NCBI RefSeq assembly: GCF_003334255.1
Contig: NZ_QOWU01000011.1
From: Escherichia coli
GTDB taxonomy: Bacteria > Pseudomonadota > Gammaproteobacteria > Enterobacterales > Enterobacteriaceae
Reading direction: 5' to 3' (one strand)
DNA length: 64,000 nucleotides
A program made the position numbers and the translations under genes. Position 1 is the first letter of the stretch. Each line of letters begins with the position of its first letter. Below the pieces are notes generated by a model. It did not search any database. It saw only the letters and a list, made by a program, of their open reading frames with translations, and was not told the origin of the DNA. Below are positions 2,282 to 50,218 of the stretch, piece by piece.

Positions 2282-3571
2282 ATGGAAACGACTCAAACCA
2301 GCACGATTGCGTCGAAAGACTCTCGTAGTGCCTGGCGCAAGACAGACACCATGTGGATGCTGGGCCTTTACGGCACGGCAATCGGCGCGGGCGTGCTGTT
2401 CCTGCCAATCAACGCCGGTGTTGGCGGTATGATCCCGCTGATCATCATGGCTATCCTTGCGTTCCCGATGACGTTTTTTGCTCACCGCGGCCTGACTCGC
2501 TTCGTACTGTCTGGTAAAAACCCGGGCGAAGACATCACCGAGGTTGTAGAAGAACACTTTGGTATTGGCGCAGGTAAACTGATTACCCTGCTCTACTTCT
2601 TCGCTATCTACCCGATCCTGCTGGTTTATAGCGTGGCAATCACCAATACCGTTGAAAGCTTCATGTCTCACCAGCTGGGTATGACGCCACCGCCGCGTGC
2701 GATTCTGTCGCTGATCCTGATCGTGGGTATGATGACCATCGTTCGCTTCGGTGAGCAGATGATCGTTAAAGCGATGAGTATTCTGGTATTCCCGTTTGTT
2801 GGCGTACTGATGCTGCTGGCTCTGTACCTGATCCCGCAGTGGAACGGCGCTGCACTGGAAACGCTGTCTCTGGACACTGCATCTGCAACCGGAAACGGTC
2901 TGTGGATGACCCTGTGGCTGGCAATTCCGGTAATGGTGTTCTCGTTCAACCACTCTCCGATCATCTCTTCTTTCGCCGTTGCGAAGCGTGAAGAGTACGG
3001 CGATATGGCAGAACAGAAATGCTCGAAGATCCTGGCATTCGCACACATCATGATGGTGCTGACCGTAATGTTCTTCGTCTTCAGCTGTGTACTGAGCCTG
3101 ACTCCGGCAGACCTGGCTGCGGCTAAAGAGCAGAACATCTCGATTCTGTCTTACCTGGCTAACCACTTTAACGCACCGGTTATCGCGTGGATGGCTCCGA
3201 TTATCGCGATTATCGCTATCACCAAATCCTTCCTCGGTCACTACCTGGGCGCACGTGAAGGCTTCAACGGTATGGTGATTAAATCTCTGCGTGGTAAAGG
3301 TAAGTCTATCGAAATCAACAAGCTGAACCGTATCACTGCGCTGTTCATGCTGGTAACGACCTGGATTGTTGCCACCCTGAACCCGAGCATCCTGGGTATG
3401 ATTGAAACCCTGGGCGGTCCAATCATCGCGATGATCCTGTTCCTGATGCCGATGTACGCAATTCAGAAAGTACCGGCAATGCGTAAGTACAGCGGTCACA
3501 TCAGCAACGTATTCGTTGTCGTGATGGGTCTGATTGCAATCTCCGCAATCTTCTACTCTCTGTTCAGCTAA
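2282..3571 (+). CDS. sdaC: Serine:H+ symporter (HAAAP family)
   Basis: 429-aa polytopic membrane ORF with GGAG RBS; recognised as SdaC; followed by sdaB. Confidence 0.95.
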
Positions 3572-3628: not shown

Positions 3629-4996
3629 ATGATTAGCGTATTCGATATTTTCAAAATCGGCATTGGCCCTTCCAGTTCTCATACCGTTGGACCAATGAAA
3701 GCGGGTAAACAATTTACCGACGATCTGATTGCCCGTAACCTGCTTAAAGACGTGACCCGCGTGGTGGTTGACGTGTACGGCTCGCTCTCTCTGACCGGTA
3801 AAGGCCACCACACTGATATCGCCATTATTATGGGCCTGGCGGGTAACCTGCCGGATACCGTGGATATCGATTCCATCCCCAGTTTTATTCAGGATGTGAA
3901 TACTCATGGTCGCCTGATGCTGGCAAACGGTCAGCATGAAGTGGAGTTCCCGGTTGATCAGTGCATGAACTTCCACGCCGACAACCTTTCTCTGCATGAA
4001 AACGGTATGCGCATTACCGCGCTGGCGGGCGATAAAGTCGTTTACAGCCAGACTTACTACTCTATTGGCGGTGGCTTTATCGTTGATGAAGAGCATTTTG
4101 GCCAGCAGGATAGCGCACCGGTTGAAGTTCCTTATCCGTACAGTTCAGCAGCCGATCTGCAAAAACATTGTCAGGAAACCGGGCTGTCACTCTCTGGCCT
4201 GATGATGAAAAACGAGCTGGCGCTGCACAGCAAAGAAGAGCTGGAACAGCACCTGGCGAACGTCTGGGAAGTCATGCGCGGCGGTATTGAGCGCGGTATT
4301 TCCACCGAAGGCGTGTTGCCTGGCAAACTGCGCGTTCCACGCCGTGCTGCGGCACTACGCCGGATGCTGGTCAGCCAGGATAAAACCACCACTGACCCGA
4401 TGGCGGTTGTTGACTGGATCAACATGTTTGCACTGGCAGTGAACGAAGAGAACGCTGCTGGCGGTCGCGTGGTGACTGCGCCGACTAACGGTGCGTGCGG
4501 GATTATCCCGGCAGTTCTGGCGTACTACGACAAGTTTATCCGCGAAGTGAACGCTAACTCACTGGCTCGTTACCTGCTGGTAGCCAGCGCCATTGGTTCT
4601 CTTTATAAGATGAACGCGTCGATTTCTGGTGCTGAAGTGGGTTGCCAGGGTGAAGTTGGCGTGGCGTGCTCAATGGCGGCGGCTGGTCTGGCAGAACTAT
4701 TAGGCGCAAGCCCGGCGCAGGTGTGCATCGCGGCGGAAATCGCCATGGAGCACAACCTCGGTCTGACGTGTGACCCGGTCGCCGGACAGGTACAGGTGCC
4801 ATGCATCGAGCGTAACGCCATTGCGGCAGTAAAAGCGGTGAACGCCGCACGTATGGCGCTGCGCCGTACCAGCGAGCCGCGCGTCTGCCTCGATAAAGTT
4901 ATCGAAACCATGTACGAAACAGGTAAAGATATGAACGCCAAGTACCGCGAAACCTCTCGCGGCGGCCTGGCAATGAAGATCGTTGCCTGCGATTAA
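3629..4996 (+). CDS. sdaB: L-serine dehydratase 2 (Fe-S)
   Basis: 455-aa ORF recognised as SdaB; sdaCB operon arrangement. Confidence 0.95.
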   Translation: MISVFDIFKIGIGPSSSHTVGPMKAGKQFTDDLIARNLLKDVTRVVVDVYGSLSLTGKGHHTDIAIIMGLAGNLPDTVDIDSIPSFIQDVNTHGRLMLANGQHEVEFPVDQCMNFHADNLSLHENGMRITALAGDKVVYSQTYYSIGGGFIVDEEHFGQQDSAPVEVPYPYSSAADLQKHCQETGLSLSGLMMKNELALHSKEELEQHLANVWEVMRGGIERGISTEGVLPGKLRVPRRAAALRRMLVSQDKTTTDPMAVVDWINMFALAVNEENAAGGRVVTAPTNGACGIIPAVLAYYDKFIREVNANSLARYLLVASAIGSLYKMNASISGAEVGCQGEVGVACSMAAAGLAELLGASPAQVCIAAEIAMEHNLGLTCDPVAGQVQVPCIERNAIAAVKAVNAARMALRRTSEPRVCLDKVIETMYETGKDMNAKYRETSRGGLAMKIVACD

Positions 4997-5863
<867 letters not shown>

Positions 5864-16748: not shown

Positions 16749-16954
16749 ACTTCCTGAGCCGGAACGAAAAGTTTTATCGGAATGCGTGTTCTGGTGAACT
16801 TTTGGCTTACGGTTGTGATGTTGTGTTGTTGTGTTTGCAATTGGTCTGCGATTCAGACCATGGTAGCAAAGCTACCTTTTTTCACTTCCTGTACATTTAC
16901 CCTGTCTGTCCATAGTGATTAATGTAGCACCGCCTAATTGCGGTGCTTTTTTTT
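16749..16954 (+). ncRNA. gcvB: GcvB small regulatory RNA (Hfq-dependent)
   Basis: ACTTCCTGAGCCGGAACGAAAAG... matches remembered GcvB; TATAGT -10 at 16737-16742; GU-rich seed at about 16812-16845; internal and terminal hairpin plus U-tract terminators. Confidence 0.85.
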
Positions 16955-16970
16955 ACCTTGCGATCGCGAA

Positions 16971-17198
16971 TTACTGATCCAGTTCGACCATCTCTTTCAC
17001 GTCAGTACGGTTGATCTGCTGTTTGTTGCCATTAGCGTCTTTATACGAAATCATACCGGTATCGTTATCAGTCTGTGGTTTGCCGTCAGAGACGATGGTA
17101 CGTCCGTCATTGGTGTGCATCACATAGTTCGAACCGGAACAGGCGCTCAGGGCAAAAGTCAGCATACAGGCAGAAATAATTGCGGCAGTCTTTTTCAT
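16971..17198 (-). CDS. ygdI: DUF903 family lipoprotein
   Basis: 75-aa ORF with lipobox (LSAC); AAGGAG 6 nt upstream of the ATG at 17198. Confidence 0.8.
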
Positions 17199-17389
17199 CA
17201 TCTTCTCCTTAAAGCGATTAATAAATCTTAATAGTATTGATTAACAGGCTAAAATTAACGCCTAACACTATTCAGCATATGTTACTTACGCGGCTTCGCC
17301 AGGATATCCAGATAATTCTGATGGTTAGCACTCTCCTTGTATCAAAGTGAATTTTGCGTCACGATCGGTGCATCAAGCCGAGGAGTACC

Positions 17390-19948: not shown

Positions 19949-20046
19949 GCCTGATGCGCTACGCTTATCAGGCCTACATAACTCCTGCAATATTTTGGAT
20001 TTGCATGATTTGTAGGCCGGATAAGGCGTTCACGCCGCATCCGGCA
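19949..20046. repeat. BIME: two REP elements in the tcdA-mltA intergenic region
   Basis: gcctgatgcgctacgcttatcaggcctac (19949-19977) and gtaggccggataaggcgttcacgccgcatccggca (20012-20046), both classic REP. Confidence 0.75.
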
Positions 20047-21439: not shown

Positions 21440-21516
<77 letters not shown>

Positions 21517-46501: not shown

Positions 46502-49868
<3,367 letters not shown>

Positions 49869-49933: not shown

Positions 49934-50022
49934 GAAAAAAAACCTGCGCATCCGCGCAGGTTGGTGCAAGAGACAGGGTACGAAGAGCGTACCGAATAAT
50001 CTCACCAATCAATACCTCTGGG
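49934..50022 (-). ncRNA. omrA: OmrA small RNA (OmpR-regulated, Hfq-dependent)
   Basis: Reverse complement reads CCCAGAGGTATTGATTGGTGAGATTATTCGGTACGCTCTTCGTACCCTGTCTCTTGCACCAACCTGCGCGGATGCGCAGGTTTTTTTT, matching remembered OmrA. Confidence 0.85.
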
Positions 50023-50136: not shown

Positions 50137-50218
50137 AAAAAAAACCTGCGCATCTGCGCAGGCTGGTGTAATTCATGTGCTCAACCCGAAGTTGACTTCA
50201 CCTATCAATACCTCTGGG
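50137..50218 (-). ncRNA. omrB: OmrB small RNA (paralogue of OmrA)
   Basis: Reverse complement reads CCCAGAGGTATTGATAGGTGAAGTCAACTTCGGGTTGAGCACATGAATTACACCAGCCTGCGCAGATGCGCAGGTTTTTTTT; shares 5' and 3' ends with OmrA. Confidence 0.85.

Follow-up and report, generated by a model that had tools for sequence, protein, structure and literature searches.

The paralogous lipoprotein genes ygdI and ygdR of Escherichia coli and their relatives on small plasmids

The analysed window, a 64-kb stretch of chromosomal DNA of Escherichia coli, carries two genes for small lipoproteins. The gene ygdI is located on the minus strand at 16971..17198 and codes for 75 amino acids plus stop; its assignment is based on RefSeq, the NCBIfam model NF033216, the Pfam family DUF903 (PF06004), and a conserved start codon. 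The gene ygdR is located on the plus strand at 45104..45322 and codes for 72 amino acids plus stop; it is assigned by RefSeq ("lipoprotein YgdR"), NF033216, and sequence identity to PDB entries. Both genes had been named in a first-pass annotation, which placed ygdI at 16971-17198. RefSeq uses both names at exactly these positions, and its CDS for ygdI has the same coordinates. The two peptide strings quoted in that annotation were recovered exactly in the two open reading frames (ORFs), and the described arrangement, 28 kb apart on opposite strands, agrees with a measured distance of 27.9 kb (ygdI on the minus, ygdR on the plus strand). We have hardly any doubt that the pair consists of ygdI and ygdR.

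The annotated 75-aa ygdI is enclosed in a slightly longer minus-strand ORF (16971..17201, 76 aa, MMKK...) which starts at the first of two adjacent ATG codons. When the locus is aligned with four others from Enterobacterales, this first ATG is AAG in the other genera. Thus, conservation supports the second ATG (17198) as the start, and the 75-aa form is the correct one. Both genes are mirrored by antisense ORFs (16938-17231, plus strand, 97 aa; 45038-45325, minus strand, 95 aa), which are without support as genes.

The two proteins had been described as evidently similar members of the DUF903 lipoprotein family, with pairwise alignment proposed as a check. Their similarity is highly significant: BLASTP aligned them with 43 identities over 72 residues (60%), 75% positives, and a single 1-residue gap (E = 1e-31). 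Both match the NCBIfam model lipo_YgdI_YgdR (NF033216, curated cut-off 42 bits) over positions 1-71 of 71, with 113.2 bits for YgdI and 105.9 bits for YgdR. The match of YgdI to Pfam DUF903 spans the entire model (positions 1-49 of 49, 8.7e-24); the Pfam scan covered YgdI, and YgdR is placed in the same family by its 60% identity to YgdI. A tblastn search with either protein revealed no third copy in the 64-kb window (next match, E = 0.69). The earlier statement that the function is unknown also holds: in the excerpts of the literature that mention ygdI or ygdR, the genes occur only in omics tables or YgdI serves as model cargo, and neither is named in the title or abstract of the papers retrieved for ygdI, ygdR, or DUF903. 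Public databases already contain the two genes along with their family, paralogy, and structures, so that the pair as stated adds no novelty. What goes beyond the first-pass annotation is that the fold is solved, that the duplication is ancient and its products are differently regulated, and that the family also occurs on small plasmids.

A region of 1.4 kb around ygdI, with the gene order gcvA / ygdI / csdA, is 100% identical to K-12 MG1655 and to many other strains. ygdR is annotated between ygdQ (TerC family) and tas. All 5426 complete E. coli genomes contain ygdI, and 5424 of them contain ygdR. The interval between the two genes is 220 bp shorter than in MG1655, because tRNA-Met (CAT) is encoded once in the window (21440-21516) but by three tandem copies in MG1655; the strain thus differs from the MG1655 record. 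The gene lgt (38995-39870, minus strand), which is responsible for the first step of lipoprotein maturation, is located between ygdI and ygdR, and lplT-aas (46502-49847, minus strand) is found just downstream of ygdR-tas. lplT-aas recycles the lysophospholipid by-product of lipoprotein N-acylation. As the ygdR neighbourhood differs in Rouxiella, the proximity of lgt and lplT-aas to lipoprotein genes is probably a coincidence. Another duplicated pair in the same window is formed by the paralogous sRNAs OmrA and OmrB (RF00079, 96.6 and 86.1 bits), which are arranged in tandem between aas and galR (49935-50022 and 50137-50218, minus strand). In the tcdA-mltA region, Rfam reports a match to the sRNA ES036 (CssrF) at 19970-20012 (minus strand; 46.5 bits, gathering score 37.6).

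On its 3' side, ygdI converges with the sRNA gene gcvB (16749..16954, plus strand, located by a match to GcvB), the 3' end of which is separated from the stop codon of ygdI (16971) by only 16 nt. GcvB and the regulator GcvA belong to glycine and one-carbon metabolism. A terminator scan detected a GC-rich hairpin common to both genes (16926..16947). For GcvB, it constitutes a strong intrinsic terminator; in the direction of ygdI, it comes after an A-run and has only a weak U-tail. The minus-strand RNA of the hairpin folds with -16.2 kcal/mol (z = -3.4). Four other loci of Enterobacterales have the hairpin unchanged, and it looks like a terminator shared by the two genes or working in both directions. 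On the 5' side, an alignment of the ygdI-csdA intergenic region from E. coli to Erwiniaceae contains a sole invariant block of hexamer size, TATGCT (17274..17279, minus strand). This candidate -10 element has C at -8, as in sigma-S promoters, and would imply a 5' UTR of about 70 nt. Judged from the sequence, it is a plausible sigma-S type -10 element of ygdI. A sigma-70 promoter scan upstream of ygdI and ygdR gave nothing convincing on the coding strands.

Directly 3' of the ygdR stop codon, the terminator scan detected a terminator-like hairpin with a T-rich tail (45327..45351, plus strand), which fits a monocistronic transcript of ygdR. On the 5' side, TAAGATTTTCCTG at ~45022-45034 resembles an RcsAB box but was rejected as such; its spacer is one base too short, and it is absent upstream of ygdR from Rouxiella. 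The motif TAAGA-N4-TCCTR has no match anywhere in the 64-kb window, and there is thus no canonical RcsAB box upstream of ygdR. Similar motifs flank the gene on both sides, TTAAGATTTTCCTG upstream (45021-45034) and TTAAGATTTTTCTC downstream (45345-45358).

At the nucleotide level, ygdI and ygdR are 59% identical over the aligned codons, and only 26 of 72 third positions agree (36%). Their likeness is thus at the protein level and is old. Synonymous differences are saturated (pS = 0.81). The synteny around ygdI, with mltA-tcdA-csdE-csdA, the divergently oriented ygdI, and gcvA-ygdD-rlmM, is kept out to the Erwiniaceae, and a YgdR-type gene follows mutH in Rouxiella (Yersiniaceae). Saturated synonymous sites together with conserved synteny indicate that the duplication is older than the split between these families of Enterobacterales. 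Both genes are ancient paralogues of the E. coli core genome, and ygdI is under strong purifying selection (dN/dS 0.075-0.12). The conserved enterobacterial neighbours (gcvA/gcvB, csdA, mutH) are separate transcripts with unrelated functions and do not provide a guilt-by-association signal.

A neighbour-joining tree of the family resolved three clades, one with YgdI, one with YgdR, and a third one termed A; resolution is weak because the sequences are so short. The A clade has no member in the 64-kb window. It includes a third chromosomal DUF903 paralogue of 77 aa in Enterobacter, which is located just downstream of carB (3001-3234 in the compared loci). More distant homologues of about 70-75 aa were found as stand-alone genes in the betaproteobacterium Niveibacterium, in Halopseudomonas, and on a seawater-metagenome contig. 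Their gene neighbourhoods are unrelated to each other and give no functional clue. Three proteins of 591-791 aa, each with 5-6 matching stretches, were considered as multidomain relatives and none was accepted as a family member; in two of them, repetitive D/G/T-rich segments are found at the start, one of these being a tandem repeat.

Both precursors have a basic N-terminus which is followed by a hydrophobic stretch and a lipobox with Cys20 and Ser at +2. As read from the sequence, the lipobox is L17-S18-A19-C20 (LSAC) in YgdI (17139..17150, minus strand) and V17-S18-G19-C20 (VSGC) in YgdR (45152..45163, plus strand). A lipobox is also present in most full-length representatives of the family. 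The predicted mature proteins extend from Cys20 to Gln75 (YgdI, 56 aa) and from Cys20 to Arg72 (YgdR, 53 aa). The Lol sorting +2 rule for E. coli lipoproteins is well established. Under this rule, Ser at +2 predicts an outer-membrane destination for both proteins, and none of 62 diverse family members has Asp at this position.

Three-dimensional structures are available for both branches. Residues 21-72 of YgdR are identical to PDB entries 2jn0/3fif, and YgdI is closely similar to the Salmonella and Klebsiella entries 2ra2 (E 2.5e-29) and 5cai (E 1.3e-27); solved structures of close YgdI orthologues are 2ra2, 5cai, and 3bdu. The PDB crystal entries hold 2 to 8 chains, counts which say nothing on biological assemblies. 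The family has the Sm-like/SH3-like small beta-barrel fold, and the barrel is a single domain of roughly 50 residues. A confident AlphaFold2 model of mature YgdI (pLDDT 88.9) has six short strands, the first of which begins at mature residue 5, which leaves almost no tether between barrel and lipid anchor. Among 62 diverse members, conserved turn residues are D12-G13, G20-K21-P22 (the GKP motif), D25, T28-G29, D35, and G38, and further conserved positions are T10, Y33, I43-N44, and V48. No conserved His, Cys, or Ser that could form a catalytic set was found among these 62 members. We also considered "DTG"/DxDxG as the signature of an aspartic protease or a calcium loop and dismissed it, as the Thr-Gly is only ~73% conserved and is located in a beta-turn of the Sm-like barrel. 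The domains are acidic, the net charge being -3 in mature YgdI and -6 in mature YgdR, with a family median of -2.

The fold invites the idea that YgdI and YgdR form extracytoplasmic Hfq/Sm-like rings which bind nucleic acid, for example in vesicles or in the biofilm matrix. However, their negative net charge argues against RNA binding, their identity to Hfq chains is just 6-12%, and a Pfam search with YgdI at E <= 10 returned DUF903 and a Pirin match (0.2), but neither LSM nor Hfq. Small beta-barrels of this type recur in unrelated functions and even among de novo designs. We consider nucleic-acid binding by such rings to be highly improbable.

Data on expression and location come from published studies. 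In Salmonella, YgdI is listed as an RpoS-dependent small protein (PMC5437024), and in a cpxRA mutant of Citrobacter rodentium ygdI is down; the authors cite its activation by RpoS (PMC6153362). Upon treatment with a LolCDE inhibitor, ygdI is up 25-53 fold and ygdR 8-12 fold, and the respective table marks ygdR as Rcs-induced on peptidoglycan damage (PMC5105897). Data sets on a cathelicidin peptide and on acid shift report both genes as up. Both proteins are included in the results of O157 membrane proteomics. Tagged YgdI was detected in fractions of outer membrane and vesicles and behaves as an outer-membrane lipoprotein cargo that is enriched in vesicles after peroxide (PMC8284480), and one gene table refers to YgdI as a "verified lipoprotein" (PMC8767339).

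Two phenotypic data sets include ygdI. In a TraDIS study, transposon insertions in ygdI confer a growth advantage under trimethoprim and sulfamethoxazole, and hfq insertions were scored in the same screen (PMC8767339). The ygdI effect may be due to polarity or read-through on gcvB/gcvA rather than to the loss of YgdI. Such a neighbour effect is possible given the convergent gcvB at a distance of 16 nt, the common hairpin, the nearby gcvA, and the co-scoring of hfq. In the other data set, 11 genes including ygdI were overexpressed in a study on tolerance to 3-hydroxypropionate (3-HP), and only ynaI is named with a significant gain in the passage considered.

The family is not restricted to chromosomes. 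A tblastn search of PLSDB with mature YgdI returned 381 plasmid records, 278 of which are typed as mobilizable. About 200 of the 381 are ColE1-like plasmids of 2.5 kb, mostly from Enterobacter hormaechei. In the one examined (NZ_CP032846.1), annotation is limited to rop, one short hypothetical ORF, and a YgdI/YgdR lipoprotein gene (506-733), which we refer to as B type. About 45 further plasmids of ~4.0-4.4 kb (one of 8.3 kb) carry a tandem of an A-type gene (77 aa) and a B-type gene (75 aa), for example at 25-507 of the 4.1-kb ColE1-type plasmid NZ_CP029125.1. The tandem gene products are 41% identical to each other. Hosts of the family-carrying ColE1-type plasmids are Enterobacter, Klebsiella, Salmonella, and Serratia. 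The same A-B tandem, with ~73% nucleotide identity, adjoins a gene of the ymgB/ariR family on Pantoea megaplasmids, and a tandem DUF903 pair is also found in Halopseudomonas. A further sequence compared in this context has family genes at 4959-5436. Purifying selection also acts on the B gene of the plasmids (dN/dS 0.06-0.075). "Two YgdI/YgdR family lipoproteins" on Col440I plasmids are mentioned in a 2023 preprint, without interpretation.

The recurrence of pairs and the status as sole cargo suggest two other explanations. One is that YgdI and YgdR act jointly, either in a hetero-oligomer or by each contributing half of a single function. Divergent DUF903 pairs do recur side by side on ColE1-type plasmids, on Pantoea megaplasmids, and in Halopseudomonas. 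However, about 200 plasmids of 2.5 kb have the B-type gene alone, distant homologues are also found singly, and the E. coli genes are 28 kb apart, monocistronic, and under different reported regulators. Joint action thus seems unlikely to us.

The other explanation is that DUF903 lipoproteins might be exclusion or protection factors located beneath the outer membrane, where they would block or neutralise incoming agents such as phages, colicins, type VI effectors, lysozyme, or cationic peptides. Exclusion factors of this kind include the phage lipoproteins Llp and Cor and the plasmid protein TraT. Apart from rop and the replicon, about 200 tiny multicopy plasmids carry no cargo other than a B-type homologue, and its low dN/dS there indicates that it is maintained by selection. 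The acidic domains (median net charge -2, YgdR -6) point in the same direction, as do the reports that ygdI and ygdR respond to cathelicidin and to Rcs-type damage and that a DUF903 cluster correlates with T6SS presence in the Serratia pangenome (PMC12165300). On the other hand, PADLOC gave no match, and PHROG matched YgdI only, weakly (best 8.6e-05) and always from residue 1, so that the matches overlap the signal peptide. A tblastn search identified no annotated phage gene; five "phage" records proved to be unannotated fragments of 2-3 kb or bacterial contigs. In E. coli, moreover, both genes belong to the universal core and are under stationary-phase control, a character more in line with housekeeping in stress physiology than with an arms race. 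Exclusion or protection as the role of these lipoproteins is therefore quite unlikely. As primary explanations, both are weakened by the single-gene plasmids, the negative results with PADLOC, PHROG, and phages, and the core, stationary-phase character of the E. coli genes.

An extended version would regard DUF903 as a selectable, transferable module for envelope protection or exclusion, with the chromosomal ygdI and ygdR as a domesticated, stress-regulated version of this two-component module, possibly acting from the periplasmic side on an outer-membrane protein. We regard this version as rather unlikely. If true, a single B-type gene or an A-B tandem would suffice to keep multicopy ColE1-type plasmids of 2.5-4.4 kb in clinical Enterobacter, Klebsiella, Salmonella, and Serratia. 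The plasmid cargo is the only element of this analysis that is perhaps worth an experiment, and the sole gene of a 2.5-kb plasmid is easier to test than a redundant chromosomal pair.

We consider YgdI and YgdR to be best explained as an ancient, differently wired pair of stress-induced, non-enzymatic binding modules of the outer membrane, and we assign a probability of about 55% to this explanation as a whole. Both precursors would be processed by Sec, Lgt, and LspA, the mature part being a single acidic Sm-like beta-barrel. With only ~4 residues between the lipidated Cys and the barrel, the barrel would be kept close to the outer membrane's inner leaflet and face the periplasm. The proteins may then serve as small non-enzymatic modules that bind a protein or another ligand of the envelope, "binding module" being the default in view of the lack of conserved catalytic residues. 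According to the published data, both are made under envelope stress and rise when lipoprotein trafficking fails. ygdI answers to the general stress sigma factor RpoS and to Cpx, and ygdR to Rcs, a regulatory split which is based on transcriptomics in different species. The retention of two copies through different stress circuits would probably represent regulatory subfunctionalisation. The mechanistic part (binding modules, regulatory retention) is proposed only tentatively, with odds that we place below even. The 3-HP result and the advantage of ygdI insertions fit this explanation poorly, and the latter clashes with a simple protective role. The lack of a canonical RcsAB box in the window also counts against it. 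The pair retains some interest as a small, clean case: its genes occur throughout E. coli, are strongly constrained by purifying selection and strongly induced by envelope stress, and their products are of known structure.

Among known systems, Hfq/Sm/LSm barrels and the Sm-like Rho inhibitor Rof/YaeO resemble YgdI and YgdR in fold only. As compared to Hfq/Sm/LSm proteins, YgdI and YgdR are exported, lipid-anchored, and acidic, and they are devoid of Sm sequence motifs (6-12% identity). Because they combine an export signal, a lipid anchor, and acidic charge with the lack of an Sm signature, a classification as Sm proteins would be inappropriate. In their general logic, namely a short lipoprotein controlled by RpoS or Rcs, they correspond to Slp, OsmB, OsmE, YbaY, and MliC, which are listed together with ygdI and ygdR in data on the LolCDE inhibitor (PMC5105897) and on membrane proteomics. 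However, the folds and families of these proteins are unrelated to YgdI and YgdR, and MliC has a defined target (lysozyme). As for described exclusion or defence families, PADLOC holds no homologue, and PHROG is represented by the weak matches to YgdI only.

The closest system is the YgdI/YgdR family itself (NF033216; DUF903, PF06004). The two window genes are its name-giving members, do not differ from it, and match the HMMs over their full length; its structural-genomics entries are 2jn0/3fif (E. coli YgdR), 2ra2, 5cai, 3bdu, 2rd1, 2rb6, and 2k57. The plasmid homologues WP_001036746.1 and WP_000719360.1 (Col440I/ColRNAI) and WP_021243043.1 (2.5-kb plasmids) belong to the same family and have the same domain plan. 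The A type, which represents the third clade without a member in E. coli K-12, is 50-52% identical to both YgdI and YgdR, and the B type shares 54% identity with YgdI. The plasmid genes differ from ygdI and ygdR in being mobile, multicopy, and often arranged in tandem, and the B type has Thr at +2.
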